NCBI GenBank assembly: GCA_004431415.1
Contig: QPMI01000608.1
Span: 1 to 39,375 of the forward strand
Direction of reading: 5' to 3'
Source of the DNA: Cyanophora paradoxa CCMP329
Taxonomy: Eukaryota > Plantae > Glaucophyta
DNA length: 39,375 nucleotides
In this document: positions 1 through 18,210 of the stretch, in pieces
Layout of the letters: each line of letters opens with the position of its first letter
Position numbering within the stretch: position 1 is the first letter of the stretch
Made by a program: the position numbers and the translations under genes
Notes under the pieces: model-generated
Database searches by the model: none
Seen by the model: the letters and a program-made list of their open reading frames with translations, nothing else
Told to the model about the DNA's origin: nothing

Positions 1-481
1 ATTCAAAGAAGACTTTATCAGAGATTCAATAATAATTCAGAGAGAAGCCAGAAGCTGGTCAAAAGAAAGCTGACCCAACTCTGTTCACACTTCTACACAA
101 TGATGATGAGTATAAGATGGCTCACATGAAGATATTACTGGATATGTGGAAGAACAAAGAGGTTGAAGAGATCTTAAGGTCCCCCTCAATCGATTATTGA
201 ACAGGGAATTAACTTTATAGCTGAAAATGATAAGATTGGTGAATGGCTTAGATAATTTCGAGGTTACATAATGCAAACGACTTTGTTTCCAGTGATATCA
301 TTTACAAATCATACAAAAGTGTTGATGATAAAGTTGAATGTGTATCTGTATGAAAAGAGTAAGGGAGATCTTCAATGTTAAATCAGAAAGAAAACGAGTT
401 ATGGTATTCTTGCCAGAGGATATATTGGATTCGAAAGATAACAAGGGTTCAGAAGACAATGAAGATGATGCCGAATATTAA
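1..481 (+). CDS. C-terminal part of a D5-like (SF3) primase-helicase, frameshifted and 5'-truncated by the window
   Basis: Manual translation across frames gives IQRRL (Arg-finger-like), EAGQKKADPTL..YKMAHMKILLD, FIAENDKIGEWL, NDFVSSDIIYKSYK and RGYIGF, ending at TAA 479-481. This is the usual order of helicase tail plus winged-helix in D5 proteins. It is missing from the ORF track because of several indels. Confidence 0.7.
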
Positions 482-535
482 ACAAACGATTATGATTGAG
501 ATTTACATATATTTTATAGCCTTACTGAAATGTTT

Positions 536-635
536 GTGTGACAGGTGTGACAGGTCCATCCCAAGGAAAGCCCTGGTGAAAAAGTTGATTTCAAAATCGA
601 TGGGATAGACCTGTCACACCTGTCACACCTGTCAC
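536..635. repeat. Palindrome of 9-bp iterons (GTGTGACAG)n, candidate replication origin
   Basis: Arms 536-563 and 601-628 are 28-bp inverted repeats with 1 mismatch, plus a partial extra unit at 629-635. The same motif family recurs at 16790-17174. Confidence 0.9.
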
Positions 636-750
636 TATCGAAAAAGACCAAAATTTGACAAGAATACTTAAGGCTTACTTGATTGTGTATAGTGAAGACA
701 AAATGGCAAAACTCTTGATGAGATGACCATGACTGAGTTAGATAAATGCA

Positions 751-1471
751 TTAAGCATGGAGATATTGGAGCATATATCGAAATGTCACAGAGATTGATA
801 GGTTACAATATGTATGCAGCAAACCAAAGAGAAATAGATCAGTAAATTCACATAACTGTTTCAGTGTCTGAGAATGCAAACAAAAAAACAAAAGCATATT
901 TACAAAAGTTATCTGTGACTTGATTGCAAGTATAAAGCCAATTCCTTTGTATATATTTTTAGCTGCCTCAGTGGCATACTGAGACCGCTTTTTCTCAATT
1001 ATCTTATAGACCTGGGGGTCCATTGCTACTATCAGTGGCAAATAATATTTAATCGGTCTCCCTCTGGGTCTCTGCTCCTCTTTTTGGGCTTTTCTGCGAT
1101 AATAGGAACATGCTTGTTGTTCTTATACTCTCTATATTCTGGGTCCTCTCTATATCGTTTCTGCTTTGCTAGAATGTGTCTAATAGCACCCTCAGTTAAA
1201 GGCTCATCACTGGTAAACTCGATTAAACTAATTGTATCCTCCATTAATATTTGCAGAGAAAACGTTTTCACCAGAAAGAACTTCTCCTTGGATACTCCTG
1301 TTGCTCATATGTATACTCTGTGGGGTCTGCTGGCATTGACTCCACAGAAACTGTTGATCTCCTTCTCTCTCTTGCTTCTGAGGCATTATCCTCATTATCT
1401 GACATCTCAAACTCCATTGTTGTCTCACAGCATCCACTGTGGCAATTGCTCACCACATGCAGACTGAACAT
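751..1471 (-). CDS. Hypothetical viral protein(s), probably one gene split by frameshifts
   Basis: Three abutting or overlapping minus-strand ORFs (1268-1471, 1032-1271, 751-1041) with charged, protein-like composition. No recognisable motif, and the ends are uncertain. Confidence 0.4.
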
Positions 1472-1565
1472 CTCAAAACTTTCGTATTATATCCATGTCT
1501 CTAATAAAACAGAGAAAATTAAAGCCAAACTCGTCTTTTATATACTGTTGGGGCTACTCCCTTTT

Positions 1566-2244
1566 CTACTTCAGCTTTGGTGGCACCAGGTTCAATGGTT
1601 CCCTTTGGGTCTTTGTTTTCATTTCATCTACTGCCTGCTCATCGATTTGGTTCTCTTTCTTAGCAATAAACTGTTTATCTGGGACACCAGTGATACCCAT
1701 TTTGAATACTTCCTTTCGAAGCATCTCCTTTAGCTTGGCTCTCTCTTTCTTCTCAGTAACATACTGCTCCAAGGCACTTGATTTGGCTTCCAGATCTTTG
1801 AGTTTAGCAGTCATCTCATCCCATTGAGCTTTGGGAATTCGATGAATATTTTGAGTGGGAGCAGTCTTATATGTGACTTCACCAGCCATAGACTGGATTA
1901 CCTTGTCTGATTCCTTACTAAGACCTTCACCTTTGCGAGCCAGTGAAAGATCTTGCAAGCCTAAACCTTTATCATCAGCAGCACCAATAATTCGCCTGGC
2001 ACCCTCAGCAACAGCTTTCATTTTGAGGCTTCTGGTGAGATGTTGAGTTGGTCAGCAGTTGAAGCTGTGGGGCTTTGTCATCGACTGATTCCTCATAGGC
2101 AGCATTGAGGGGTCTTCTTGTTGTGAGGGCTTTATCATTCATACCATTGAATTTCATTGGTTCAGTGTTAATGGATCCATTGTTTCCACCACCTGAATAG
2201 CCAACAGCCCCAGCTGGGATCCCTATTTTTCGTTTGGGAGGCAT
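1566..2244 (-). CDS. Hypothetical basic/coiled-coil viral protein, frameshifted near 2010-2065
   Basis: ORFs 2005-2244 (starts MPPKRK, NLS-like) and 1566-2021 overlap and join if indels are allowed. TAATAAAG lies just upstream of the ATG. Confidence 0.55.
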
Positions 2245-2272
2245 TGTATCTTTATTAGAATGAGAGATAATT

Positions 2273-3022
2273 TTATAAACCGCGTTTATATCGCATCAAT
2301 TTATTGCTATGGACTTGGCTTTTCACTTCTTTGGGGGCTTCCTCTTTCTCTGGTGGTTTCAGTTCATCTTCTTTCTTTTTTGGCTTCCTGTGGAAGCGAG
2401 GAAAATCGAAATCTCCAACTAAATCGGCTTTATCGACATAGTATTTAACTTAGTAGTTTGCAGAGGACCAAACGATATGATAGGAGTGAACATACTCTTC
2501 AAACATTTGTAGAAATCCTCTTTTTTCGCATTATATTGTATTCTTCCTCTATGGCTTCAAGTTCTTTTGCGATTAGCAGCACAAAACATAATCATAATTC
2601 AGAATTACACTTGAACTTTCGAATTTCTGAGAGATAGATAATGGATATTTTCGAATGGCGCCTCTGGAATACAAGATCCATTTTTATCTCCTGAGATCGA
2701 CTTCATTTCTATCATTAAATCATCTAAAACACCACATATGGTTAAGGTTCACCCTTTTCTCTTTCTCTCTCTTAAATTTGCAATGTAAGGGATCCCATGC
2801 ACCCAGTTGAACTGTAGCAGCTTTGTCCCAAAAATGTGAAAATGAGGTAGCGGATATAATAAGTGTTGTATCAATCTTTTTGGCATCATGCAGCTGTTTC
2901 AAATAATATTTTACAGCTTCAGTCTTCCCACATCCTGATTTCCCAAGTATGAGTAGTCGGAAAGGGGGTTCTATCATTTCACCAGCCACAAATTCCTCCA
3001 GTTCAGAACTTGGTATAGGCAT
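2273..3022 (-). CDS. A32/FtsK-HerA-type genome packaging ATPase, frameshifted
   Basis: Walker A LILGKSGCGKT is in the listed ORF. In other frames downstream are Walker B (VLDDL, about 2735-2720), MDLVFQRRHSKISII (the family's RH motif), SQKF...NYDYVL and a charged tail ending at TAA 2275-2273. Total about 250 codons, adjacent to the capsid gene. Confidence 0.85.
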
Positions 3023-3081
3023 TGTTGTAGATCTTCCTAAATAAAGACAGATAAAAATAATGCTGGGAGACTGAAAATGGT

Positions 3082-4452
3082 CTATAAATTGATTCTACGA
3101 AGACCTGAACCGTCCACAATGAGGAAACTATGCATGAGAGCGCGAACATTAACATCGATTACCTTATCTGAAGGCATGTAGAGGGTGAGGAAGGAAGAAG
3201 AGGAATTTGTTAAATCAACATAACCAGACTGGGCAATATTTCGAATTGCCTTTTCTCCATCAAGGCAGAATGGGAGTCCTGAAAGGACATAGCGATCAGC
3301 AACCTTATCCATGTTAGAGCATTTGAAGGCATCAGCAATTAGCTCAGCACCTTTGAGTAGGGAAATTGGCTCAGTGGCATAAAGTCGCTGTCCATTAATT
3401 TCAACAGTGAAAGTAATATCTTTGGAGTTGGCATAGGTCTTAAGAACACTGTGGGAGCCAGTGGATTTATCAACAGTTGCATTATCACGAACTGAAACAA
3501 GCAGAGCATAAACAAGACCTGAGATTTGAGAGAGGTTAATTCGATTGGGTTGGGCATTGCCCTTGGCAGGGAAAGCACTAGCATCTACAAATCCAATATC
3601 AAGGGAGGGAATAGCCATGCCAGTAGTCTTTACTTTTTCAATAACAGTAGCGAAAAGCTCATCAGAAACATTAATAGCATGCATGTAAAGGCGAGGAGAA
3701 GTAATAGAAATAACAGGAGTTGTTGCACCAAGACTGAAAGTGGTGATGTTTTGACCAACATGGGCAAGTGTAGCATTAGCAGTATCACCAAGACCATCAT
3801 CTTCTGTCTTATCAGCAACTGTCCCACCAACAACAGGGAGAGAGCGACCACCATAGGAAGTTTCAACATAACCCTTCTCAGCATCCTTAAACCAAACAGT
3901 AACAACCATTTCACCAGATAAAGCACCAAGGGGAAGATAATGATTGAGCCAAGGCACAGGGATTTCAACGAAAAATGAGCCACCAAGTCGGTTGGTTCCA
4001 TGAGCAGGGATACCATGAACCATGCCCATTGATCGCTTCTTTTTAGCTAGTTGATCCTCCGAATAATAGACCAGGGGGAAATGAGCAAGGAAATCAGATG
4101 GAATATGGTAGGTGTAAGATCCATAGGTAATTTCAAGTCGCTGAACTAAAGCACCAACTGGGCGAGTGTATCCATTGCGAACTAGGTCAGTATCACCAGC
4201 AAACGTGATGGCTGGAAGGTCGAAAGCAAGTTCGAGTTTTCCACAGAAATTGTAGCGAGGTAGCTTGAAGGAAATGCGATTTCCAACATTATTCTCAAAA
4301 GTATTGCTGGGATTCACAACAACTAGAACTGGCTTAGACTTAGATTCGAGACCAAGCATAAGGGAGTTATCCAGGAAAAAGGCTTTCGCCTCCTCTGGGG
4401 TTGTTAGGGCTTCTTTCAGCGAAAGTCTTTGAAGAGTGGAAGTGATATCCAT
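3082..4452 (-). CDS. Double jelly-roll major capsid protein (456 aa from the likely ATG at 4452)
   Basis: Intact beta-rich ORF between the ATPase and penton genes. Motifs GNRISFKLPR..GKLELAFDLP, ALVQRLEITYG, FFVEIPVPW..YLPLGAL..EMVVTVWFK and VEINGQ parallel NCLDV-type capsid motifs. ATAAAAG precedes the ATG at 4452. Confidence 0.85.
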   Translation of the reverse strand: MDITSTLQRLSLKEALTTPEEAKAFFLDNSLMLGLESKSKPVLVVVNPSNTFENNVGNRISFKLPRYNFCGKLELAFDLPAITFAGDTDLVRNGYTRPVGALVQRLEITYGSYTYHIPSDFLAHFPLVYYSEDQLAKKKRSMGMVHGIPAHGTNRLGGSFFVEIPVPWLNHYLPLGALSGEMVVTVWFKDAEKGYVETSYGGRSLPVVGGTVADKTEDDGLGDTANATLAHVGQNITTFSLGATTPVISITSPRLYMHAINVSDELFATVIEKVKTTGMAIPSLDIGFVDASAFPAKGNAQPNRINLSQISGLVYALLVSVRDNATVDKSTGSHSVLKTYANSKDITFTVEINGQRLYATEPISLLKGAELIADAFKCSNMDKVADRYVLSGLPFCLDGEKAIRNIAQSGYVDLTNSSSSFLTLYMPSDKVIDVNVRALMHSFLIVDGSGLRRINL

Positions 4453-4505
4453 TATATTCTCTTTTATTATACTGCAACATAAAAAATCTACCAATGATCC
4501 TTAAT

Positions 4506-5513
4506 TTATGCGAAGCTTGTAATAACTGGATAGGAAGGGTGAAGCTGCGACATTCTCATCTTAAAGTATTCATAAACTGGGTCCCCAGCTGGCTCATCAC
4601 CATAGCGAATTTCAAAGGTCAGATGAACAGGTTGACCCTCGAAATCAATTGGTTCATTTACAGCATTTACAATATCAACCGAGAAAGTGGATAATCCAAC
4701 CTTTTTATTATAATATTTGTAAAGTGGGTGAGCCTCTGTTGAATTATAAACTACATGCTCTCCATAGTCTTTATCAGGGACCACTATTTTATGGAAGTAA
4801 CCAGTCAGGAGACCATCCCCACATTGCACCAGATCACCCAGCTCCTTTACCCTCACAAACAAAACACTGTCCCTTGTCTTTTCAGGCTCAAAAGAAGATA
4901 TAATGCCATTCACTCGACCACCAGTAAAAATTCCATCAGTGAGAGCATCATAGACCTGTGATTGGATTGGGAGTTACCATATCTTCCAGGATCAAGACCC
5001 AGCAGTCTAGCTGAACTCAACAGCTTTTGGATTGTTTGTTGGCTTGGGTTCACAGCTACTGAGAAAGCCAAGTAAAATGGTACTGCTGAGTGGAATATAA
5101 TTCGTTTCAGTGATTCATCCCATTTGCAGCGAATGGATGGTTGGGGATTCTGCCTTCGAATTTAGAGTTAATTACATTCACCAGTTGCTGGTGGCTTTGG
5201 ATGGGGTGTTTCGACTTATAATGAATTGTTTCCATTGTTCATAGTCAGCAGCTGGGCGAACTGTTGGAATTCCTGAGCTTCCAGCTCCAGGAGTTTGTTC
5301 AGAATAATAAATGCTAAATGCATTGTCAACTGTCACATCTCCTGCTTTGGTTTCACCACTCACCATAGGGATACTGTTATAAAATTCGGCTGAGACCAGT
5401 CTCACAGCCCTCACATTCTCATAACTACTGGGGAGTCTAGCCACAAAGCTTGAAGTGGGACCATCACCAGAGATTGTATTAAATGAGCTAACCTCGATGT
5501 AATCCACAGGCAT
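4506..5513 (-). CDS. Minor capsid (penton-like, single jelly-roll) protein 1, frameshifted
   Basis: N-terminal SSFVARLPSSYENVRAVRLVSAEFYNS, middle SARLLGL (in an unlisted frame, about 5030-5000) and C-terminal LFVRVKEL...FSVDIVNAVNEPIDFEGQPVHLTFEI align by eye with the intact paralogue at 5543-6475. At least three indels are needed. Confidence 0.78.
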
Positions 5514-5542
5514 TCTTCTTTTATCTATATTCATATATTAAA

Positions 5543-6475
5543 ATGAACCGGCTCGTTAATATTGATAGCAGGGATAGAAGCCAAGGACAAAATGAAAACT
5601 CTTACAGGGTCACCCTCACAACTCCAGTAGAGAGACCAAGGGAATGCAGGGTTCTATATGCAGAGATTCCAAACAGCATCTATAACAGTGTGGGAACTGA
5701 TCATCTAACAGTTCAGTTTAATTACCAAGATGGTTCATATAACCAAGTGATCACACAACAAGTGTATCCCCTTCCCAGTGGCTACATCAATCAGGGTCAT
5801 TTTGGGGTAACACACCCTTATAATTATGGGCTGAACTATTCAAGCTTCCAAACCATTGCAGATAAAACTGTGTTTTTTGAGTTCAAGATATTCTACAATC
5901 CAACTACCTATAAAGTGGAGTTTTACAGTAACCATGAGTTTCGTTTTATTGCAAGCAACCAGAGAATAGGAAAGCTTTTGGGTGTAAGTTCTACTGAATA
6001 CACCACTGGGTATTATAGCACTCCTCCTGTTGGTGGATCTCCATATCGACCTGAGAACCTTTTAAAGTATGATGGTAAACCTATTACACCTGATCACCCA
6101 GCATGGGGAATCACCTTCTCAGGACCCAGACTCTCCTCAAAGCCCTTGCAGTATTATTTTGACAGCAGGAAGATGTCTGATATGAATGCTGAGCAGTATC
6201 TGTACATGCATATTAAAGAGCTAGCCCCCTTTGCCAGCAGACACAATATAATTCCGAAATCGCAACCACATAACCAGGGGGCTATCCTTAGATTACAATT
6301 GAGTAAGGATATAGGTGGCTATGTTTACCATAGTGGTGAGCATGCAGAATTCATTCAGATAAATGACAGAAACCTGGTGATAAGGGAACTCACAGTTGAG
6401 TTTAAAGATTACTTTGGTGAACTGATTGATATGAATGGAATCGATAATTCTTTTCAGTTGGAGTTTATCGAATAA
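5543..6475 (+). CDS. Minor capsid (penton-like) protein 2, 310 aa
   Basis: LVNIDSRDR start, VLYAEIPNSIYN, IGKLLG, YLYMHIKEL and ELTVEFKDYFGELIDMNGIDNSFQLEF are typical of minor capsid proteins of PLVs and NCLDVs. Confidence 0.85.
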   Translation: MNRLVNIDSRDRSQGQNENSYRVTLTTPVERPRECRVLYAEIPNSIYNSVGTDHLTVQFNYQDGSYNQVITQQVYPLPSGYINQGHFGVTHPYNYGLNYSSFQTIADKTVFFEFKIFYNPTTYKVEFYSNHEFRFIASNQRIGKLLGVSSTEYTTGYYSTPPVGGSPYRPENLLKYDGKPITPDHPAWGITFSGPRLSSKPLQYYFDSRKMSDMNAEQYLYMHIKELAPFASRHNIIPKSQPHNQGAILRLQLSKDIGGYVYHSGEHAEFIQINDRNLVIRELTVEFKDYFGELIDMNGIDNSFQLEFIE

Positions 6476-8021
6476 AGGCACCTGTAAAGTCAACTCTCAT
6501 TGTGGGAGCATTCACATACACAAGGGGATAAATGCGAATATATTTAATTCTGAGAGAAAAACCTATGTAAAAAGCATCCTTGATGCTGAGAGGAAATCCA
6601 CTCAATAGAGCCACATCACCTGAGTTGTGAGCATTGTTAATGTTCTCACAGACATATATTTTGTTTTGCCCATCTGATCGAATAAAAGACCAGTTGATCC
6701 CATCAGTGGATGTTGCCACATTGAAAGTCTTAATAAAAGCATTGGTGTCCCCTGATCCATAGGCAATCACAGAAGAGAGTTCAAAAGTATATGGGAAAGC
6801 AACTTGAAGGTATTCAGTGGGGGTTTCCCATATCTGCTCAGGAGCATAGGCTCCAGCTTCCCAGCCAAATGCTGAAGGTCTAGCCATGAAAGGCTCTTTA
6901 CCAGTCACAGAGGATGAGGCAGTGAAGGCATCATCTGCAAGCTGATACCAATTAGCATCCAAAGGTGGTGATGTAGTGAGAGTGGATGAAATGTAAGCCT
7001 TTGAAGGGTTCTTTAGTTCATAGTTTGCTACTAGTAGGCTGCAAAGCTTATTGATCATATCATTGTTTGCTGCAATGTAGGTTTCTGTGAAAGAAAGCAT
7101 ATCTGGGATTTTAGAAGTGTCATCAAGGGAGCTAACTATATGGTTTGGAAGAGGGACCGATAGCCTATAGTATCTCCCATAATCCTGATCATAGTTGTAG
7201 GGTAAAAGCTCCTCCATTTTATCAAGGGCAGAAAGCTCACTTGCAGCCATGAGCATGTTAATCAATGGGCTTCCATCTGTTGAGGCAATCCATGAGAGAA
7301 TGCCCCAGCTGTTTACAGTCTCATAAGCATAACCCACATAATCAGACTCTAAATGTGGGTCCACCTCACCACAAGAGATGCTTATTACTATAATGTCATC
7401 ATCATCACTGTAAATCTTCTTTGCATGGCTGTAACCACACACACTGGGATTATTGTTTCCCGAAATGGCACCATCAATGAGACAGACATATACTCCCCTA
7501 TTGAAATCAACAATGCTTACAGGAGAGAAATATGTAGGAGCAGCAGAAGTAGCCCTAGCAGCAATCTTACAAGGCATAAAGTTGTAATTGTTGTCATTTG
7601 TGATAAATATTGGTTTCATATTCTGAGTATCAAAGGATGTGATCACAATGTCCTTAAGGGAATCCTGTATTAGTGATTCACCAGTAACTGAATTGATTGC
7701 AGTCTCCAAGGGTCCCACATCATACTTTGTGTTAAATAGGGCATTTTCAATGATATTTCGAGGATTTGCGAAAATCAAGGGCAGTTGAGTTAGGTAAATA
7801 TTGTGTAAATCGTTTGCTGTCAGTTTAGGTTCACCTGGTTTATCAGGATGCCTGATGTTTAACCCAATAGCAATGATCCCACCAGTGGAAGTTCCACTCA
7901 CAAGATCCACAAGATCGATTATTCTCCTGCCAGTTCGATTTTCGATTTCTTTGAGCAGCCTGGTTATGATAATGCCCCTTGCACCCCCGCCAGAAAGACT
8001 TAAAACGACCTTGAGAGGCAT
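6465..8021 (-). CDS. Patatin-like phospholipase fused to a C-terminal discoidin (F5/8 type C) domain, 518 aa
   Basis: GGGARG oxyanion motif, GTSTG nucleophile elbow, SAAPTYF and DGA catalytic Asp. The C-terminal FTASSS..W..EYLQV..KTFNVATSTDGINW..KYIRIYP..MRVDF fits the discoidin pattern. Confidence 0.92.
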   Translation of the reverse strand: MPLKVVLSLSGGGARGIIITRLLKEIENRTGRRIIDLVDLVSGTSTGGIIAIGLNIRHPDKPGEPKLTANDLHNIYLTQLPLIFANPRNIIENALFNTKYDVGPLETAINSVTGESLIQDSLKDIVITSFDTQNMKPIFITNDNNYNFMPCKIAARATSAAPTYFSPVSIVDFNRGVYVCLIDGAISGNNNPSVCGYSHAKKIYSDDDDIIVISISCGEVDPHLESDYVGYAYETVNSWGILSWIASTDGSPLINMLMAASELSALDKMEELLPYNYDQDYGRYYRLSVPLPNHIVSSLDDTSKIPDMLSFTETYIAANNDMINKLCSLLVANYELKNPSKAYISSTLTTSPPLDANWYQLADDAFTASSSVTGKEPFMARPSAFGWEAGAYAPEQIWETPTEYLQVAFPYTFELSSVIAYGSGDTNAFIKTFNVATSTDGINWSFIRSDGQNKIYVCENINNAHNSGDVALLSGFPLSIKDAFYIGFSLRIKYIRIYPLVYVNAPTMRVDFTGAFIR

Positions 8022-8064
8022 CTTTTACTTATCAGGAATTTTATAAATCCCTATAGTAAAAGCC
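8022..8064. promoter_or_regulatory. Compact bidirectional promoter/initiator with inverted AGTAAAAG motifs
   Basis: CTTTTACT (8022-8029) and AGTAAAAG (8055-8062) are exact reverse complements, each 0-2 nt from a divergent ATG. Related (A/G)TAAAAG motifs precede other viral starts. Confidence 0.6.
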
Positions 8065-11000
8065 ATGAGCTTCAATTACCCACCCAATCTAGAAACCATT
8101 CAAGATGATAATGCAAGCAGCACCAAGCATGTGAACTTTGATAATATTAAAGTAAAGGGTTCAGTTTCAATTGACCACAGCTCTGATAATTCATCAAAGA
8201 CTCAATCAAGGGAGCATGCTTTATCTGTGAATCAAACCGATCCAGATAAAGAGGATGTCAGTGTTGCTTTTAGTTTGGGTAATGTGAAAGCAAACCAAGT
8301 GGCAGAGATCAAAGCCACCAGAAGGAGACCTAGGAAACTGAAAACCAGTGGCACTCACCCAGATATACCTTCCAGGTTCGATAGTGGTCGATTGATTTTC
8401 AATGTTCAAGATGAGCAGGGCAAACAGAACACAGCTTTACGAATTTACAATGAGGGCAGCACTGCAAAAGCTGAGGTCCCCCAAGTATTGCAAGTGGGTC
8501 CCATTGCCAATACAAATCAGGTCTCCTACACAAATGATGTCTACCCCAAGGATATTACATATGACTTTGCAAGAAATGAGCCTTTTGGGTTCTTTACTCC
8601 AAAAGATGTCCATCAAAAAAAGCCATCAATTACAATCAACAGTAGCCCCAGTCAACCAGTAGCAATCCATTTGCATCCTGATTTAGTCGAAATGGATAGG
8701 CACCTTTTGCCTTTGTATAGCAATGTGAAAGACCTTGGAATTCGAACCAGGCAATGGCGAAATATCCATGGCAGTAATGTGTATGCAAATGGTGAGAAGC
8801 TTGTTAGTGAGAAAACCCTAAGAGAAATCATTGAGCATTATGGTCCCAATGGACCTACTGTCCCATTCCCTATTCCATTTCCCAATGGACCACCCGATTT
8901 AACACCAAAGAAGCAGCCTGGAAGAGAATACACAGCAACTGAAGATGTAGCCTTTGGGCAGCATATTGTTAGTTGGGAGCAAGTTCGCAATAAACCTATA
9001 ATTGAACCCAGAAAGCAAATAGATGAGCAGTATTTACCTCCTGAAGTCGATATATTAGAGCTTGATGAATATCAATTCGTTCCAGATGAGGAAGAATATT
9101 TACCAGATGGTTTTGACCCACAAGAATATGAATATGATCAGTTTGACCCCAATGAGGAGGAAATATTGCCCGATGGCTTAGATCCACAAGAGTTTGAGTA
9201 TGAGCAGAACTATGAACCTGATGAGGAGTATTTACCAGATGGTCATGATCCACCAGCTGTTGACTATGAGCAACCTTATGAACCCCATGAGGAATTGTTA
9301 CCAGATGGATTTCGACCTGAGATCTGGGAGTTCTTTCCTGATTATGAACAAATTAATAATAAACCTGCAAAGTATCCCCCAGAGGATCACAATCATGATT
9401 GGGATGAGATCTTAGGCAAACCTCAGAAGTATCCACCAGAGGATCACAGGCATGATTGGGGTGAAATTGATGGGATACCTGCTGAGTTTCCACCAAGCAA
9501 ACATGAACACACTTGGGATGAGATCAATGACCAACCAGAATTCGCAAAGGTGGAGCCTCTTGATAACTTGGGGGTTTCTCTTTACCAGACTTGTAATGTC
9601 CCTGAAAGGATTTTTTTGAACGAACACTATGTTCATGTGAATGGGACACTTGCAAATTCAGCTATGAGAGGACCACTTCATATTAGGACATTACCAGGCT
9701 CTTTTGAAACCCCACCTGAACCAGGAGCAACCATACCAAATATCTTTGTGTCAAGCTACATGGAGGCTGACATTCCCACAGATACATTCAGAGTCCCAAC
9801 AGACCCAGCAACCTACCAAAATTACAACGCTGCTATACAGGTTCATGTAGCAGATGTAAGCAGTTTAGATGGCTCAAGACCAATGATAGTATTCAGCAGA
9901 GATAAATATTCTTACATTCCCATAGTGGGAACTGCAAATGATAATTATGGGAGGGCAGAGCTTGCATGGATTAAAACAGATTATGGTGGGGTTCTGGAAG
10001 CCAATCAGAGGATGGCTGCAAAAAACATACACAATGAAAATATTTCGAGAGTGGTCACAGAGGATTACCTTACTGCTGTTGTTCTTGTGAATATAGTCAC
10101 CCTTGCTATGCTTGCAAATTATGTAACGAAAAATGAACTTGCTCTTGAATTATCAAAGTATCTTCTCAAAACAGGTGGGACAATCACAGGGGACCTTACT
10201 GTTACCAGTAACCTTTACACAAGTAACCTTTATGCAAGCAATATAACGGTCGATTTTCTTACTGTTACATCTAATGCAAACCTCCCACATCATCCAACTT
10301 CAAATGTTGTGGAAGGGTGGATCAGAAACCATACTCACACCAAAGACCAAATTTTAGACTTTGATCACACACATGCCTGGTCAAATATTGTGGACAAACC
10401 ATTGACTTTTCCCCCAGATGATCACACCCATGCCTGGTCAAATATTTTCGACAGGCCCCTAACCTTCCCTCCTGATATTCACACTCATGATTATACCCAG
10501 ATCACCAACTGCAATCACAGACATCCTTGGAATGAAATAGATGAACAACCAGTGTTTGCACAATTAAATGCAATCGGAAATGTTTTTAATGGAGTCACAC
10601 TTTACCAATCGAGTAATACACCTGAAAGATTGTATTTGAATGATCATTATGTTAGTCTCAATGGGACTTTTACAGGTCAAACAGGCACTCCAATGGAGGG
10701 AACTCTTGCAGTAAGATTACCCAGGGATCCAATCGTAAATGGAGTTTATGATGGTGATTTTAATGTAGGAGTAAATGATACTTTCCCCAGTATCTATGTT
10801 ACAAATTATCACCCAGGTGAAACAGGACAAGTAGCCGATTTTTCAGCAGCTATTCAAATAAACGTTACAGATCAAAGCGCATATGATGGAGCAAGACCTA
10901 AAATAGTATTCACAAGGGAGAAAGTTGTAAACTATCTTCCCGTTGCGGGACAACCCACAGATGATCACGGTAAATGTGAGATGGCGTGGATAAAAACAAC

Positions 11001-13530
11001 ATCAGGTGGCGCCTTAGAAGTCAATCAGAGGATGGCGGCGAAAAACTTACACAATACAACCCTTTCAGGTGTCGTTACAGATGATTACCTAACCAATAAA
11101 GGATATCTTACGACCGCGGATTTAAGCAGTTACACAACGGATGCAGAATTAACAACGGCTCTTGCGAATTATTTACCTCTTACAGGTGGGACAGTTAATG
11201 GAACTGTAAACGCTACTAGTCTACAAATTGGTGGAAACACAATTCCAAAAGGATATGATTTCGATCAATTAGATGTAGTATCAACAGATAGAAGCGCAAA
11301 TAATTGGAATTTGAATTGGTCACCAAGAACAGGACAAACAGGATGTTATACTACACCAGCAAATGATGAAGATTGCAGCGGTTGTTGGATGCGTTGGACA
11401 ATTCCAGAAGGTATGAAATCATTTTATATTCAGCATATGCCTTGGTATAATGGCAGATATTTTGATATCTATGGTCAGACTCTCAATAACAATCAGCATT
11501 TCTTAAAACGTGTAAACGATTATCAAGGAATACAGTCAGTAAATCATGATGGGACAAATAATACTATCTTGTTTGTATCAATTAATTGCGAGTTTTACAA
11601 GTATATTTATGTTCAAGGGCGAATAGGTCGCATTCATCTTACAGGGGTTTTCGGTTGGAGCAGACAGAGGGCAACAGATAATGATGTTGGTTTAGTTCAT
11701 TATGATAATATTGCTTTCAAACCAGATGTAGGCAAATATACAGAGTTTGATGTTGTGAGTGGTTACAATAGCGCAGGTGTTGAATTTGTAGGGTCTTGGG
11801 ACACGAATTGGAAACCTACATCAGATAACCCGGTTGCAGGATTTTACAGCATTGTAACTGATGATGAAACCAGCGGTGACTATATGCAGATCTTAGTTCC
11901 AACAGGAATGAAAACTTGTCACGTCCAATATTTCTGTTGGACGAATTGTAGATATTTTGATATAGGAGGTTATCGAAACAATAGATGGAATCACATTATG
12001 AGAGTGAATACTTATCAAAATGCAGGAAATACATATGCAGATTCACTTTGGCATGAAGGTTTAACATGGACTTCATTCTTTTGTGGGAATTTCTCATATA
12101 TTAGATTTGTTGCGAGAAAAGGGCGTTGTCATATTGGAATGCTTGGATGGACAAAAGAGGTAGGAAGAACAGCACCAGCAAATGGTATGATAAGTTGGGA
12201 TAATGTTTATAGCAAACCGTCATTTTATTCAGCCGCAGACCTTCCACAAACAGCGACATGGCCAACAAATACATGGTTAAAATCAACCGACACTGTTCCG
12301 CGAATTTGGTTTGGAAATGGTGATTGCACATATATTCGAGGTTATGGAAATGGTGCTGGTGTTTCAATTGAATTCAGAGACTCAGCAGATGGAGCAATAT
12401 TAAAGTCTTATAACAATGGTAACTTTTGGGTGAAAAACACTATTACAGCACCCACTATTAATGCTACTACCAAACTCCAAATAAATGGTAATGATATCCC
12501 AAAGTTTCACACAGCAGATAAAACAGTAGGAGGTATTGAATTTAATAGATGTTCTTATAACGATTGGGAGTGGGCGTGGAGTTCAGCATGGGATCCATCT
12601 TATAATTATGGTTCTTACGTTTATAATAAGCAATCGGATGATCAAACTTCTACCGCTTGGATTGACTTCGATATTCCAGAAGGATATCACACAGGAACAG
12701 CGTTTTTAACTTATTTACCTTGGGTTAGCTCACGACTTTTTGAAATTTGGGGAGTGAATCGACAAGGAAATGAAGTTTTTATAACATCAGTGAATAGTTA
12801 TCAACCATACTCCACATCTCCTGAAGGTAACCACAGTGGTTTAAATAATGTTCCTATACATCTTGGTAATCGATTCCTCACAATTCGGATTAGACCAAAG
12901 ATTGGAAGAGTTCACATTATGGGTATAAGTTACATGAAAATTTGGGTAGGAAATAGTTATGGTGGTCACACCGGCTATATTCATTGGAATAATGTTTATA
13001 GTAAACCAAATATCTTAACAGGAGCTGTGGAAACTTGGTTTAATTCCAGTGATGGATATAATCGAATTCATTTCGGTAACAATGGTTCTACATATTTGAA
13101 AGGAAGGGGAGATTATCCAATAAGATTTCGAAATGAATTAGATTCTGATATTTGTTGGATCGATCATAACGGGCGGATGTGGATAAACAATTATTTAACA
13201 CAAGGAAGTGACAGAAGATACAAAACAGATATTAAAAAGATAACCGGCGCTCTTTCAGCAATCGAAAAATTAGAAGGAGTGAGTTTTAAACGAATTGGGA
13301 GTGAAAAAGACGGAACAAAATTAGGTTTAATTGCGCAAGATGTAGAAAAGGTAATACCAGAAATTGTAAGTGTCACAAAAGAAGATGGTTACCTTTCTCT
13401 CGAATACACGGGTTTAATTCCAGTTCTCATAGAAGCCGTTAAAGAGTTATCTAAGAAATGCAAAGATTTAACACAAACATGTGAAAATCTCCAAAGTCAA
13501 ATAGATCAAATTAAAAATGTCACAGTATAA
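8065..13530 (+). CDS. Giant fibre / receptor-binding protein with C-terminal intramolecular chaperone (Peptidase_S74), 1821 aa
   Basis: HxHxW..I..KP phage-tail repeats, two YL..TGGT..G.(L/V) shaft motifs and three repeated beta-rich domains. GSDRRYKTDIKKI..AL..IEKLEGVSF..GLIAQDVEKVIPEIV..LEY.GLIPVLIEAVKEL plus a terminal coiled coil. Confidence 0.9.
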   Translation: MSFNYPPNLETIQDDNASSTKHVNFDNIKVKGSVSIDHSSDNSSKTQSREHALSVNQTDPDKEDVSVAFSLGNVKANQVAEIKATRRRPRKLKTSGTHPDIPSRFDSGRLIFNVQDEQGKQNTALRIYNEGSTAKAEVPQVLQVGPIANTNQVSYTNDVYPKDITYDFARNEPFGFFTPKDVHQKKPSITINSSPSQPVAIHLHPDLVEMDRHLLPLYSNVKDLGIRTRQWRNIHGSNVYANGEKLVSEKTLREIIEHYGPNGPTVPFPIPFPNGPPDLTPKKQPGREYTATEDVAFGQHIVSWEQVRNKPIIEPRKQIDEQYLPPEVDILELDEYQFVPDEEEYLPDGFDPQEYEYDQFDPNEEEILPDGLDPQEFEYEQNYEPDEEYLPDGHDPPAVDYEQPYEPHEELLPDGFRPEIWEFFPDYEQINNKPAKYPPEDHNHDWDEILGKPQKYPPEDHRHDWGEIDGIPAEFPPSKHEHTWDEINDQPEFAKVEPLDNLGVSLYQTCNVPERIFLNEHYVHVNGTLANSAMRGPLHIRTLPGSFETPPEPGATIPNIFVSSYMEADIPTDTFRVPTDPATYQNYNAAIQVHVADVSSLDGSRPMIVFSRDKYSYIPIVGTANDNYGRAELAWIKTDYGGVLEANQRMAAKNIHNENISRVVTEDYLTAVVLVNIVTLAMLANYVTKNELALELSKYLLKTGGTITGDLTVTSNLYTSNLYASNITVDFLTVTSNANLPHHPTSNVVEGWIRNHTHTKDQILDFDHTHAWSNIVDKPLTFPPDDHTHAWSNIFDRPLTFPPDIHTHDYTQITNCNHRHPWNEIDEQPVFAQLNAIGNVFNGVTLYQSSNTPERLYLNDHYVSLNGTFTGQTGTPMEGTLAVRLPRDPIVNGVYDGDFNVGVNDTFPSIYVTNYHPGETGQVADFSAAIQINVTDQSAYDGARPKIVFTREKVVNYLPVAGQPTDDHGKCEMAWIKTTSGGALEVNQRMAAKNLHNTTLSGVVTDDYLTNKGYLTTADLSSYTTDAELTTALANYLPLTGGTVNGTVNATSLQIGGNTIPKGYDFDQLDVVSTDRSANNWNLNWSPRTGQTGCYTTPANDEDCSGCWMRWTIPEGMKSFYIQHMPWYNGRYFDIYGQTLNNNQHFLKRVNDYQGIQSVNHDGTNNTILFVSINCEFYKYIYVQGRIGRIHLTGVFGWSRQRATDNDVGLVHYDNIAFKPDVGKYTEFDVVSGYNSAGVEFVGSWDTNWKPTSDNPVAGFYSIVTDDETSGDYMQILVPTGMKTCHVQYFCWTNCRYFDIGGYRNNRWNHIMRVNTYQNAGNTYADSLWHEGLTWTSFFCGNFSYIRFVARKGRCHIGMLGWTKEVGRTAPANGMISWDNVYSKPSFYSAADLPQTATWPTNTWLKSTDTVPRIWFGNGDCTYIRGYGNGAGVSIEFRDSADGAILKSYNNGNFWVKNTITAPTINATTKLQINGNDIPKFHTADKTVGGIEFNRCSYNDWEWAWSSAWDPSYNYGSYVYNKQSDDQTSTAWIDFDIPEGYHTGTAFLTYLPWVSSRLFEIWGVNRQGNEVFITSVNSYQPYSTSPEGNHSGLNNVPIHLGNRFLTIRIRPKIGRVHIMGISYMKIWVGNSYGGHTGYIHWNNVYSKPNILTGAVETWFNSSDGYNRIHFGNNGSTYLKGRGDYPIRFRNELDSDICWIDHNGRMWINNYLTQGSDRRYKTDIKKITGALSAIEKLEGVSFKRIGSEKDGTKLGLIAQDVEKVIPEIVSVTKEDGYLSLEYTGLIPVLIEAVKELSKKCKDLTQTCENLQSQIDQIKNVTV

Positions 13531-13533
13531 TAA

Positions 13534-13842
13534 ATGGCGACCTATCCACTTGGTGGATCTCCTTCTACTACTTCTGAGCCTGTTGCTCTTGCATTCGATA
13601 CTATCAAACTTGTAGCCGCACTACAAAATGTCGAAAAAACGATTCAGCAAACTAACAAGCTCTCACCAGTTGTAAATGAGTATAAAAACCTCTTGGTTAA
13701 TGTCCTTGCTCAAGCTGCATATGGTGACCCTGTTGCTAAATACAATGAGTGTGATAACAACATTAAAGCAATGACATCCAACCTGCAAGTTCTTTCAACT
13801 GTTTACCAATCCCTTGGATCGAATTTAATCACTTTGGCTTGA
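13534..13842 (+). CDS. Hypothetical helical protein, 102 aa
   Basis: Intact ORF starting 3 nt after the fibre stop (TAATAAATG), with amphipathic composition. Confidence 0.7.
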   Translation: MATYPLGGSPSTTSEPVALAFDTIKLVAALQNVEKTIQQTNKLSPVVNEYKNLLVNVLAQAAYGDPVAKYNECDNNIKAMTSNLQVLSTVYQSLGSNLITLA

Positions 13843-13881
13843 TGGTAGTTTATTTTTCTTTCCTTCTTAGTAAAAGAAGCA

Positions 13882-14736
13882 ATGGGTGAATATAATCGAG
13901 TTCAACTGCCTATATATTCCCTTGGATCCCCTGCAATGCATTTTCGCCAGCATGAAGTAAATGATGAGGTTCGTGGTTTAGAATCCACAGAGAGACCCAA
14001 CTCCAATGGCAACTCCTTTGATAAAAATTCGATTATTCGAGTTAAAGAGCTGAGAGCTGATAAGAATTCTGGTGTGGTTAAAACAACTCGACTTCTTGTC
14101 ACAAATGCTAACTTCTTTCAGCCTACTAATGGAGGTCCTGATGCTTACAGTGTTGATCTGAAAGCCCTTGATTATGATAAAAACACTGCTGCTGTAACTG
14201 TGAGATCAGGAGGAGCATTTATTGGTGGTGGCTGCAGAGTTTCAGGTCAGCTATCTTCATCTGTTTCCTACAATGATGTCCCAGATACTCTCGAACAAAA
14301 TGTGGAGAACCCACAACGAATTCGTTTCTACACACCTGTTGCACAGCAACCTTTTTTGCATTTCTATGTTGCATCCTCTGTAACTCTTGAGAATTCGGAA
14401 TTAGTTTCCATTACAGGAACTGATCGAGTAAGAAGAAATATTCCTCTTCCCACTGCAATGCTTTCCATGTGTAGAGCCAATAATAATCAACCAGGACACA
14501 ACTACTTATTCTTTGTTCAAGCTTCGAACCATTTTGGCAGAGGATATTGTGTTTATAACAATTTGACATTTACCTATGATCTGTTTGTCACTGAGGTTGG
14601 AGTATACAATACTATGATTATGGGACTGAGAACAGATATAGCAGCTGTATCAGCACTTCGTGGGGTAAATGTTGCTGATATATTCACAACAGGATTTTAC
14701 CAAGAATTAGATGTAATTGATGACCCAACCCCATAA
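13882..14736 (+). CDS. Putative structural / fibre-like protein, paralogue A (284 aa)
   Basis: Intact ORF preceded by AGTAAAAG. Shares GL.STE, ELR.DKN.G.VKTT.LLVTNANF and SGGA.IG.G.RV.G with the next gene. Confidence 0.75.
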   Translation: MGEYNRVQLPIYSLGSPAMHFRQHEVNDEVRGLESTERPNSNGNSFDKNSIIRVKELRADKNSGVVKTTRLLVTNANFFQPTNGGPDAYSVDLKALDYDKNTAAVTVRSGGAFIGGGCRVSGQLSSSVSYNDVPDTLEQNVENPQRIRFYTPVAQQPFLHFYVASSVTLENSELVSITGTDRVRRNIPLPTAMLSMCRANNNQPGHNYLFFVQASNHFGRGYCVYNNLTFTYDLFVTEVGVYNTMIMGLRTDIAAVSALRGVNVADIFTTGFYQELDVIDDPTP

Positions 14737-14759
14737 AAGATATATCCCTTTAATGTAAA

Positions 14760-15593
14760 ATGGCTGAGCAACCCCCACTTGAACGAATTATTACACCTCA
14801 GCTATCATTAGCTGCACCAGCAAACCATGTTCTGCAGCATGCTACTTTTGATGATGTTGAGGGACTGCAGTCCACAGAGGTCCAACCTACAATGAATACA
14901 TTTGGTTCCACCCACAAGCTGAGATTACAGGAACTCAGATGTGATAAAAATAATGGAATAGTTAAGACAACTAAGCTACTTGTGACAAATGCAAACTTTT
15001 CTGCTCATTATGGAGACCCAGATAGCTATGGAGATCCTCTTTCTACTTATTCTTTTGAATCTAGGTCGGGAGCTATTAACTGCAAATCGGGGGGAGCTTA
15101 TATTGGTGATGGTCTTAGGGTTGGTGGGGCTGTTGGAGCGCCTCTATTTGTGAATGATCAACCCAATCCCATTGATCCCAACACAAGAATTCGAACCTAT
15201 GTCCCCAGCATGAATGCCCCCTATATAATAAAAATATTCCCAATTGTTGTGAATGAACAAACAGCAGTAGTAGACTCTCTTGTTGAGATTGGTGACCACT
15301 ACAAGGTTGTTGTGGATATTCCACCAGATGTATATGCTCTTTGTCAAGTAGAGGGTGGAACTCCTAATTTTGCTGTTGTGATCACCCCATATGATAATTT
15401 TGGAATTGCTTATCATGGAGTCAATTTCGGTTTAGAAGATTACCAGTTCTTAGTGAGAGCCACCAAGTTTGGTATCTACAAGTGTGTATTATATGCTGAG
15501 AGAACCGATTTTATTGCAAGGCAGAATACCTATGCTGAATACTATGGCACAAATCGATATTTCCCCATTTTTGGGCAGGATACTGCTCCATAA
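14760..15593 (+). CDS. Putative structural / fibre-like protein, paralogue B (277 aa)
   Basis: Intact ORF and tandem paralogue of 13882-14736, with a conserved N-terminal half and a diverged C-terminal half. Confidence 0.75.
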   Translation: MAEQPPLERIITPQLSLAAPANHVLQHATFDDVEGLQSTEVQPTMNTFGSTHKLRLQELRCDKNNGIVKTTKLLVTNANFSAHYGDPDSYGDPLSTYSFESRSGAINCKSGGAYIGDGLRVGGAVGAPLFVNDQPNPIDPNTRIRTYVPSMNAPYIIKIFPIVVNEQTAVVDSLVEIGDHYKVVVDIPPDVYALCQVEGGTPNFAVVITPYDNFGIAYHGVNFGLEDYQFLVRATKFGIYKCVLYAERTDFIARQNTYAEYYGTNRYFPIFGQDTAP

Positions 15594-15615
15594 GAATGTT
15601 GATTATATATAGAGT

Positions 15616-15888
15616 ATGGATAGTAAAACAAAAAAGTTTATTGATGCTGCTATGACAGTTCATGGTAAAGATAAATTCGATTACAGTGAGACACATTACA
15701 TCAAAGCTCAAGAGAAAGTATCTGTTAGATGTTTGCAGTGTAACAAGGTGATCCTTACCTATCCCTTTAATCATGTGAAGGGATCAGGTTGTAGGGACTG
15801 TAATAAAAGAAAAAGTCAAGCACATAGGAAAAGGGCTACTTCATCAATTAGAGTAGAGTATAGGGATATTTGCATTAGGTTTGACTAG
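15616..15888 (+). CDS. Small Zn-ribbon protein (DUF723-like), 90 aa
   Basis: FI..A..VHG..FDYS...Y......V.V.C..C......P.NH..G.GC..C pattern, as in repeats associated with viral homing endonucleases. No nuclease domain follows. Confidence 0.7.
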   Translation: MDSKTKKFIDAAMTVHGKDKFDYSETHYIKAQEKVSVRCLQCNKVILTYPFNHVKGSGCRDCNKRKSQAHRKRATSSIRVEYRDICIRFD

Positions 15889-15911
15889 TTAATTTTTCTA
15901 AGGTATTCTTA

Positions 15912-16310
15912 ATGGAGACTAAACACAGAGGCTTTCATGTTATGCTTGATTACAAGGCTAAATCAGCTATAGCAACAGGTTATGAGCATGTGAGCTTCCT
16001 AGGTAATTGGATTATGGGAACCCTTGAACAAGCAATATTGAGACAAGGTATTAGGATTGTTCATAAACACTGTGAGATATTTGATGGCAAACTATCACCT
16101 CCTGGTTTTGCATTGGTTCTGCTATTAGATGAAAGCCATTGTACAGCTCATTGTTATTCCAATGAAGGCATGTTAGCAATTGATATATTCAGTTGTGGTA
16201 AAGAAGCTCAGCATAAAACACAATCAGTAGCAGATGAGATCGATAAAACAATGAATTTCCTCACATTTGAGAAGACTGAGAGACATAAACATGATAGATT
16301 CCCGTTTTGA
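15912..16310 (+). CDS. speD: Prokaryotic-type S-adenosylmethionine decarboxylase proenzyme homologue, 132 aa
   Basis: G.HVMLD at the N-terminus, PPGFALVLLLDESHCTAHCY (E-S-H pyruvoyl self-cleavage site) and AIDIFSCG. Confidence 0.88.
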   Translation: METKHRGFHVMLDYKAKSAIATGYEHVSFLGNWIMGTLEQAILRQGIRIVHKHCEIFDGKLSPPGFALVLLLDESHCTAHCYSNEGMLAIDIFSCGKEAQHKTQSVADEIDKTMNFLTFEKTERHKHDRFPF

Positions 16311-16713
16311 TGGGTTTCTATAATGATAAACAGGGTAATTTACCTTTTTTATTACAATGGCAATCGTTAAAAAAGGATATAATATATCCTTTCCTACAAT
16401 AGCTTTCTACAATGATTTTCTTTCTACAGTAGCTTTTGTTACAATAGAATTCTACTGTATGATGTAGCCAAAATATGAATGCATCCTAAACCTACAAATG
16501 TAAGATTTCGAATACTATTCGATTTCATTACAGTAAAACTCAACATTCCCCTTGATTCCCCCTATTATAATTAAAGTGGACTCAAGGTTGACTCATATTA
16601 ATCGTAAAAGTAGTAAAAGTATATGGATTTTGTTACGAATTCAATGGGAGGGTTGACTAAGTGGGTTGAGTTGACTCAAATTTCACAGGAAATAACAATG
16701 AATCAGAGTATAA

Positions 16714-17182
16714 ATGCATTTTTTGAATCAACTACACCAACTAACACTGAGATTTTACCAATATATGAGGTCCTTACTGAATATGGTTTGTGTGACAGGT
16801 GTGACAGGTCTATCCCAAACTTTTCTATAGCATAAAAATGAACTCTCAAAAGTTTGGGATGGACCTGTCACACCTGTCACACTCGATTATTTCATTTGTT
16901 TATTCAAGTAGAATTACATAGATAAACTTCTTACTTATTGTTACTGAGTTTTTCATTATAAAAGAGATCCTTACTAAATATGGTTTGTGTGACAGGTGTG
17001 ACAGGATGCATTTTGTGAATCAACTACACCAACTAACACTGAGATTTTAACAATATATGAGGTCCTTACTGAATATGGTATGTGTGACAGGTGTGACAGG
17101 TCTATCCCAAACTTTTCTATAACATAAAAATGAACTATCAAAAGTTTGGGATAGACCTGTCACACCTGTCACACCCAATTAT
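16714..17182. repeat. Two ~170-bp direct repeats (period 292 bp), each ending in a 35-bp iteron palindrome, plus a half unit
   Basis: 16714-16882 matches 17006-17174. Stems are 16790-16824/16848-16882 (1 mismatch) and 17082-17116/17140-17174 (perfect), with 23-nt loops. A half unit lies at 16968-17005. Confidence 0.95.
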
Positions 17183-17425
17183 TTCAAAAATCCTAAGGGT
17201 CCCCCCTTAGAATCATTAAAACATGATAAAAACATATAAGTTTCATGTATAATTACGATTGGATTCAATAAGAGATCGATTTGTTTTATTTAACAAATGA
17301 ATCATTTATGGATCTTAATCGAGTTTAGCGATATATTTCCGATTAAATGAATTAAATTTAATTAAATTTAATCGAGAAAGTACATGAATATAATATCGAT
17401 TAAATCAATTAACAAACAGACCAAT

Positions 17426-17710
17426 CACACATAGTAAAATGCGGAGTTTTAACCAGAGGCAAGATCTAATTGAGATTCAGTTATATTATTCGGAAATATA
17501 TACAGATTATCGATAGACTCAGTAAGACTAATCGGAAAATAAGAGAAATTTACGATAAAATATCGAAAAGAATACAAAATAAACGAAATAAATGAATATT
17601 CGATAAGATATACACAGATTAACGATTGATTGAAATAGAATATACGAGATATATCAACAAAATCAATTAAGATAAGCCGAGGGTTAAAACTCCGCATTTT
17701 ACTATGTGTG
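17426..17710. repeat. Perfect 29-bp inverted repeat marking the element terminus
   Basis: CACACATAGTAAAATGCGGAGTTTTAACC (17426-17454) and its exact reverse complement (17682-17710), with a 227-bp AT-rich spacer. Host-like DNA begins at 17711. Confidence 0.95.
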
Positions 17711-18210
17711 TAGGATGCGCATCAAATTAAATTTGATCGCGAGCAGCGCTGCGAGTGAACGTTCAATCGGGGGCGCACATGTAGAAGCGAATGACCGCGT
17801 GATGGCCGCGAGCAGCGATATCGCCCAAAACTTTCTCGACGGGACCCCAGGCAAAGGAGTTCGGGCCAATGAAGACATCTGAGAGCGCGACATAGCTGAA
17901 CTCCAATGCCTGCGCAGCGGTCGCCGTTGGGCGAGAATTACGATCGAGGCTCTTCGGAAGCAAATTTAAAACGCACCCAGTCAGTCCCGGCAGCGTTCAA
18001 CTGCGGGTAGAAGGAAGTCCAGCCTGCAAAAAAGTTTTGATTTCGAATTTCACGTGCAGCGGCGATGGGAGCGCGGCTGCAATGCGACGCGAACGCACCT
18101 TTGAGCGGATTCGGGCCGCTGACGGGCTTGTATGTGAGGGGACCGCCAAAACAGGCGGCCGCGGCCGTGAAGAAGATCACAGCCGTGAGGAGGGAGCCGG
18201 AGCGGGCCAT
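17711..18210 (-). CDS. 5' exons of a host secreted DUF4832 / glycoside-hydrolase-like gene, interrupted by the viral insertion
   Basis: Splicing two GT-AG introns gives signal peptide MARSGSLLTAVIFFTAAAACFG, then NPLKG|WTSFYPQLNAAGTDW|ALEFSYVALSDVFIGPNSFAWGPVEKVLGDIAARGHHAVIRFY. This resembles the N-terminus of bacterial DUF4832 proteins. A third intron opens near 17778 and runs into the viral terminus. Confidence 0.68.

Follow-up and report, generated by a model that had tools for sequence, protein, structure and literature searches.

The analysis identifies a 93-bp module of facing tandem repeats, placed immediately after a likely D5/SF3 primase–helicase gene in a eukaryotic virus. Judged from its layout and position, this is probably an iteron origin, or loading site, for the virus's own D5 primase–helicase, of the kind used by P4 and the SaPIs. 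The window is the whole stretch of DNA that was analyzed, 39,375 nucleotides in length, and the module occurs in it as three copies, designated A, B and C.

Bases 1 to ~17710 of the window are a multicopy Polinton-like virus (PLV) that is integrated in a eukaryote. The GC content of this part is 33–42% by region, against 58–85% in the remainder of the window, where the host-side DNA amounts to 21.7 kb, and single contigs of the element are covered ~16–40 times as deeply as the flanking DNA in all four public DNA runs. At the right end of the element junction contigs begin at 17681–17686, and the GC content rises from ~30% to >50%. The left end lies outside the window. The features that we assign are as follows.

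1..481, + strand: 3′ end of a likely D5/SF3 primase–helicase gene (read-through profile score)
520..529, + strand: flank CCTTACTGAA; the same flank is at 16772–16781 and 17064–17073
536..628: module A (to 635 with a partial third repeat); repeats at 536–553, inverted repeats at 611–628
2720..3094, − strand: N-terminal part of a likely A32-type packaging ATPase, frameshifted (Pfam Pox_A32, E = 0.0017, under the Pfam curated cut-off)
3082..4494, − strand: double-jelly-roll major capsid protein (ESM Atlas 0.97, Capsid_N/Capsid_NCLDV clusters)
6465..8021, − strand: patatin-like lipase with an F5/8 domain (Pfam)
8065..13530, + strand: long, putatively fibre-like protein with a C-terminal peptidase S74 chaperone (S74 match)
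15912..16310, + strand: S-adenosylmethionine decarboxylase, the final identified gene ahead of the subterminal non-coding region
16790..16882: module B; repeats as in A, 57-bp spacer, arms pairing over 35 bp
16987..17005, + strand: half-site, left arm only, with a CCTTACT flank (motif search)
17082..17174: module C, 292 bp after B, inside a 181-bp direct duplication
17426..17710: terminal 285 bp of the element, flanked by an inverted repeat of 29 bp (perfect) or 48 bp (imperfect)
~17710: right end of the element; depth is down to host level after 17710–17721

The capsid protein has Foldseek matches to the capsids of iridovirus, PBCV-1, mavirus and Sputnik, obtained with a low-confidence model (pLDDT 37.5), and its closest sequence is P0001, from a eukaryote source, at 60%. 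It has just two relatives (61 and 37%) among 1.84 billion representatives, and thus belongs to a poorly sampled capsid lineage. No close relative of the virus was found in viral contigs by the exact module, the capsid or the helicase piece. The reading frames at 13882–14736 and 14760–15593 are adjacent paralogues that share a 68-bp block at 75%, with no Pfam match. An AT-rich palindrome of 44 bp (17336–17379) precedes the terminal 285 bp, and together with the inverted repeat that bounds them it is possibly an integration or excision signal. On the host side, 25629–28273 and 29027–31672 form a diverged inverted duplication of ~2.6 kb (75% overall, with blocks up to 99%) around a 750-bp spacer of lower GC content. 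This is likely to be a head-to-head gene pair and not a fold-back of the read.

Each module has the plan (GTGTGACAG)2…(CTGTCACAC)2, with two 9-bp head-to-tail repeats facing two inverted repeats. A, B and C are each exactly 93 bp in length with an identical 57 bp between the repeat pairs; the partial third repeat of A occupies 629–635. The sequence-only reading on which this work builds had reported a repeat palindrome at 536, 16790 and 17082, and this is borne out. With up to one mismatch allowed there are 14 matches to GTGTGACAGG in the window, every one exact and all within 536–17174, compared with 1.21 ± 1.18 expected from 100 shuffles, none of which reaches 14. A de novo scan of 1–17710 for facing repeat pairs returns just A, B and C, and finds nothing in any of 100 shuffles of the element or in the host part of the window. 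Module A starts 54 nt past the helicase stop codon at 479–481. Modules B and C, together with the half-site, are 0.5–0.9 kb from the element end; B and C lie 480–770 bp past the last identified gene, and are contained in the two halves of the direct duplication (16714–16894 and 17006–17186, 96% identical).

While the ends of the module are constant, its middle is free. The spacers of A and of B/C are unrelated in sequence, and alignment of spacers across families leaves zero invariant columns. The loops had been described as 37 nt in A and 23 nt in the distant copies, with unrelated sequences. The latter is correct, but the difference in size is one of arm length alone, since the arms of B/C pair 7 bp further than the 28 bp of A. 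The innermost distance from GTGACA to TGTCAC is 59 bp here. A fixed distance around a free middle suggests a protein-binding geometry more readily than a hairpin. The three copies differ in base composition. Module A has no AT-rich centre, its spacer being 56% and its loop 62% AT compared with 61% for the element, and this counts against an origin. The corresponding values are 65 and 76% for B and 70 and 81% for C; a value of 81% is reached by 0.9% of the 37-nt windows of the element. A AAACTTTT(T)CTA stretch is common to B/C and to loci L048 and L049 (by eye). In other contigs from the same run, the module repeats are followed by different spacers or flanks at 16772, 16806 and 17155, as seen among the 6 of 28 loose ends listed; to judge from these six, the genome holds additional types of module.

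The gene preceding module A is likely to encode the C-terminus of a D5/SF3 primase–helicase, its sequence pointing to the end of the ATPase domain, a linker and a winged-helix domain. In the window copy the gene is broken by frameshifts. Over 220–564, contigs from short reads show 9–13 gap letters relative to the window, so that these frameshifts are probably read errors. Bridging five breaks with X gives a continuous product that scores 20.3 bits on a combined HMM, built from the D5 C-termini of both phage and eukaryotic-virus loci, whereas the best of 1000 shuffles scores 6.4. The score is 8.5 bits on a narrower phage D5 profile, against 6.2 for the top shuffle out of 1000, and 12.0 bits on the eukaryotic-virus profile (best shuffle 11.1). 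The five break points were picked after weak D5 matches had been seen, and an earlier read-through with other break points had no profile score; the support for the helicase is therefore good, but not blind. Single pieces of the gene have no match in Pfam, PHROGs, ESM Atlas or by phage tblastn, no longer homologue of a 54-aa piece was found, and the pairwise score with the helicase of locus L158 is equalled by 7 of 1000 shuffles. The helicase gene that had been placed directly upstream of the palindrome is supported only by this read-through. The 80 bases at 349–430, in the predicted wing of the helicase, are replaced in a second contig of approximately equal depth in three of the four runs, and the virus family may carry two alleles of the wing.

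How general is the module? The exact 18-mer is present at 34 viral loci, and at 12 of them (23 of the 34 were scanned) it lies within or next to a primase/helicase gene, the gene types being VapE, DUF5906, DUF3987, AAA_25 and NrS-1-type. In the Microbacterium phages it falls within annotated primase/helicase genes in 12 of 16 records. The pattern of facing pairs is found at 13 viral and 32 metagenome loci, giving 45 loci in 32 clusters, while a single shuffled control pattern has no matches in viral contigs. In 16 of the 32 clusters the module either overlaps the stop codon of a D5/VapE primase–helicase or lies within 91 nt past it, and 13 of these helicases have a Pfam match of their own, independent of our custom profiles. 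The distance from GTGACA to TGTCAC is 55–62 bp in nine of the 16, with the gap bounded by the search pattern. The remaining 16 clusters, where the module is off the helicase 3′ end, count against the origin assignment. Three of these have a helicase downstream of the module, one is the terminal repeat of a eukaryotic element, and in 12 (several of them short or at contig ends) no helicase was found. The phage helicases linked to GTGACA are of widely different families and wings. The D5 gene of phiC31 is followed by a plain palindrome without GTGACA repeats (by eye). A sigma-70/terminator scan gave matches at chance level.

The association with D5 genes is also present in eukaryotic viruses. 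A facing-repeat module lies 4–72 nt after the D5 stop codon in 11 of 15 loci, compared with three of 137 other ORF stops, and two of those three are convergent genes that end on one module. The 15 loci are relatives of the L158 helicase from giant-virus MAGs and PLV-sized contigs; they take in L158 itself, which was the query, and one pair that is identical at the site. In L165 a module missed by the filter can be seen by eye, and in L167, L168 and L169 none was found after the D5 stop. The modules of L160 and L161, like A, are situated between convergent reading frames. Since the same layout recurs behind genes of this kind in many viruses of bacteria and of eukaryotes, the module is likely to be a helicase loading site, and by the same token the modules after D5 genes in the giant-virus and PLV-sized contigs are candidate origins. 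A search for the motif beside helicase genes of other elements had been suggested as a check on the sequence-only reading, and both the phage and eukaryotic loci answer it positively. A dispersed host repeat had been named as a finding that would refute that reading. Palindromic ends are common in transposons, and the module could in principle be such an end or a repeat of the host, unrelated to the virus. Yet the host DNA of the window, 21.7 kb in all, contains none of the 14 motif matches, and in other viruses the module goes with helicase genes, making this scarcely credible.

The position of module A, 54 nt past a stop codon and between convergent frames, would also fit a terminator, in which the palindrome acts as an RNA hairpin that ends the transcript. 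In the polyadenylation rule of the Mimiviridae, hairpin palindromes reportedly end transcripts and are present after the majority of genes. The modules fold strongly (z = −8.7, −13.3 and −13.8 for A, B and C), and the one asymmetry between the arms of B corresponds to a G–U-type pair. But a hairpin has no need of the 9-bp tandem period, the fixed 57-bp spacer or the conserved letters. Moreover, the same letters are found in bacterial phages, sometimes within the helicase ORF, and B and C are hundreds of base pairs beyond the nearest identified gene. The rarity of the module at non-D5 stops points in the same direction. Of the 214 inverted pairs, the 25 longest include no long palindrome at the other gene ends of the window, a comparison that applies to long hairpins. 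We consider a terminator to be quite improbable.

The layout seen in the window has a counterpart in L158. A de novo scan of the best 80 of 144 PLV/virophage-like loci, which had been picked by their protease and not by a helicase, finds six modules in 1.05 Mb. Three of these are in L158, a PLV-like locus that carries a D5 primase–helicase. One is 70 nt past the D5 stop, one is on the far side of the capsid block and inverted, and one is upstream. Thus, as in the window, there is one module beside the helicase plus distant copies. The other D5-type locus among the best 80 of 144, L147 with a DUF5906 helicase, has no module. Two further clusters have a large ORF of 1200–1350 aa beside the protease gene, represented by L091 (10956–15014) and L120 (11479–15138), from a cluster in 30 of the best 80 of 144 loci, and by L149 and L138, from a cluster in 12 of them. 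The ORFs of one cluster have no Pfam match and those of the other have an SF1-type helicase domain; the loci of both are without the module.

The modules flank the morphogenesis genes in both the window and L158, and replication origins can promote recombination. The sequence-only reading had offered a recombination site as the alternative to an origin, with same-orientation copies by which the capsid block that A and B/C bracket might be excised or swapped. Tyrosine recombinases act at sites with inverted arms and a short (6–8 bp) spacer that is identical in the partner sites. The modules differ from this in having a 57-bp spacer that is unrelated between A and B/C, and the longest exact match between A and B is just 25 nt in direct and 29 nt in inverted orientation. 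The relative orientation of A and B/C is itself ambiguous; the CCTTACTGAA flank makes them direct, as had been claimed, while one asymmetric base in the arms makes them inverted. In L158 the far copy is inverted, so that recombination there would invert the block and not excise it. There is no joint from A to B/C, of the kind that was to be sought, among the 15 of 19 joints listed, where contigs cannot exclude rare events. The contig depth on the helicase side is not above that on the capsid side (position 483 versus 752: 2146/1751 in X2, 3847/2896 in X4, 3375/3480 in X7 and 707/3945 in X1), which is a weak argument as depth is not equivalent to copy number. Recombination as the function of the copies is thus highly improbable, while the origin half of the earlier proposal is supported by position, at 16 of 32 clusters and at the D5 stops of eukaryotic viruses.

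A further group of loci (L049, L053, L063, L069, L071 and L075) forms a cluster that is the low-GC element of another eukaryote. L053 has an integrase–chromodomain gene (weak Pfam matches) and L075 a protease-like gene, both on the inner side, and these two loci share ~800 bp up to the element end, showing that the stretch is a terminal repeat. Resembling B and C, two modules with a CTTACT flank are contained in the terminal repeat of this family, at a distance of 250–340 bp from each other. The second module is built of GGCAC repeats in L053 and of inverted repeats in L049, on the same spacer. The element end continues as a near-perfect palindrome of 44–64 bp in L049 (1086–1145), L053 (1714–1757) and L069 (3146–3209), but not in L063. 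Modules with swapped letters or reversed polarity are seen in L053 (1319–1430), L049 (~700–830) and L085 (5856–5986). There are GGGAC and GGCAC modules in L087 (9644–9766 and ~10030–10130), and two foreign module types at 11894–12113 in L173, 0.9–1.0 kb behind its own. The swapped modules lie next to modules of other types, several of them on a similar spacer.

The letters of the repeat can be compared with the helicase. The repeat letters track the wing of the helicase, and not its body, in two cross pairs: the L162 and L165 helicases are 96% identical and those of L163 and L173 91%, yet within each pair the wing and the repeat are both different. L171 has a KDLRxLG wing like that of L162, yet different repeats. 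Linkage alone could explain the co-variation of wing and repeat, because wing and module are <150 bp apart. We would suggest, very tentatively and with more doubt than conviction, that D5-carrying PLVs, virophage-like viruses and giant viruses have a common phage-type origin with an exchangeable code, in which wing and iteron letters are swapped jointly on a kept spacer and terminal repeats collect the modules of several helicases. The helicase of a giant virus or of a different PLV family could then act in trans to replicate an integrated virus, or could be titrated by it.

The same observations can be read differently, in that the modules all bind helicase but only some of them fire, the subterminal copies being regulatory, decoy or relic sites, i.e. 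serving autoregulation or titration, or remaining from earlier replication modules. Relatives do hold extra modules with other letters on the same spacer scaffold (L053, L049, L087 and L173), and both a half-site and a recent duplication are present in the window. However, all the copies in the window share their repeat letters, and it is B and C that have the AT-rich spacers. Furthermore, 12 substitutions are listed among genomic copies over 16350–17800, of which none falls in the arms and four are in the loop of C, although the repeated arms are harder to call. We regard silent subterminal copies as unlikely.

If the module is an origin that functions in the manner of those bound by SaPI Rep, the winged-helix C-terminal domain would read the GTGACA core, and two helicase hexamers would be loaded face to face on the module. 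The 57-bp spacer would open after loading of the hexamers, whereupon the primase would initiate both forks, the template being the excised viral genome. Modules B and C are likely to be within the terminal repeat of the element and, on a weaker argument, might be extra or auxiliary loading sites in the way that P4 has its ori and crr. A defined 93-bp module and a predicted cognate domain make the start of replication directly testable in PLVs that lack a protein-primed polymerase, and the natural pairs of helicases that are 91–96% identical with unlike wing and repeat offer a ready test of specificity. Should the assignment be true, the module would be a mini-replicon part for protist genetics, and would mark which integrated copies share replication specificity.

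The closest parallels are in satellites of bacterial phages, among them the SaPIs and PICIs, where rep and ori together drive autonomous replication. According to PMC9371898, the SaPI Reps are SF3 helicases in which a C-terminal winged-helix domain binds iterons just past the gene. An AT-rich centre has two or more iterons on each side of it, those of the two sides pointing opposite ways, and two hexamers are probably loaded. The PICIs of Gram-negative bacteria have the same layout, and deletion of ori impairs replication (PMC6092414). Like the pri-rep-ori arrangement of these elements, module A is immediately 3′ of an SF3 helicase gene, as identified by the X read-through, in the window modules two iterons on one side face two on the other, and the loops of B and C are AT-rich. 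In contrast, the centre of A is not AT-rich, 2.5 extra copies lie 16 kb away, and the host is a eukaryote. The element is not a bacterial phage satellite such as a PICI, given the double-jelly-roll capsid gene, the high-GC flanking DNA and the eukaryote source of the nearest capsid.

In the P4 record (GenBank X51522) crr is annotated 45 nt past the alpha gene and its type-1 repeats have a 9-bp period; ori is 4.5 kb away. The window resembles this in having an iteron block within ~50 nt or so past a D5-like helicase gene, tandem repeats at a 9-bp period opposite inverted ones, a second iteron site kilobases off, and direct duplication of one block. The duplicated block is beside the helicase in P4 (crr) but subterminal in the window. 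Replication of P4 requires crr as well as ori in cis. The repeat letters are similar, TGTTCAC in P4 and TGTCAC in the window, where the core is one base shorter. They are not the same, as the type-1 repeat of P4 is TGTTCAC(C/A) and that of the window TGTCACAC, and the TGTCAC arm is on the right in the window while TGTTCAC is on the left in crr. P4 is a satellite of P2, whereas the element in the window is a eukaryotic virus that encodes its own capsid.

With the PLVs the element shares the double-jelly-roll capsid and a low-GC, multicopy insertion in a eukaryotic chromosome; further hallmarks of PLVs are terminal inverted repeats, an integrase and an A32-type packaging ATPase. For the PLVs associated with entomopoxviruses, inverted repeats have been hypothesized to be an origin for the primase–helicase (PMC11296320, available text). 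There the whole terminal inverted repeats are proposed, and the available text names no iteron motif, spacing or site after the helicase gene. We found no description of a facing-repeat module in PLVs in the openly available main texts, and an earlier account may exist in subscription papers or supplements. The available text of PMC12220804 and PMC11464507 contains nothing relevant to the module, and a literature search for the motif gave no account of it, the match in the available text of PMC11338833 being a PCR primer. What may be new here is a defined 93-bp module in a PLV, where otherwise we found just the hypothesis of an origin in the terminal repeats. By analogy, the module likely works as an iteron origin like that of P4 or of the SaPIs and PICIs, while belonging to neither, as it differs in host, in the letters and polarity of its repeats, and in the centre of module A.
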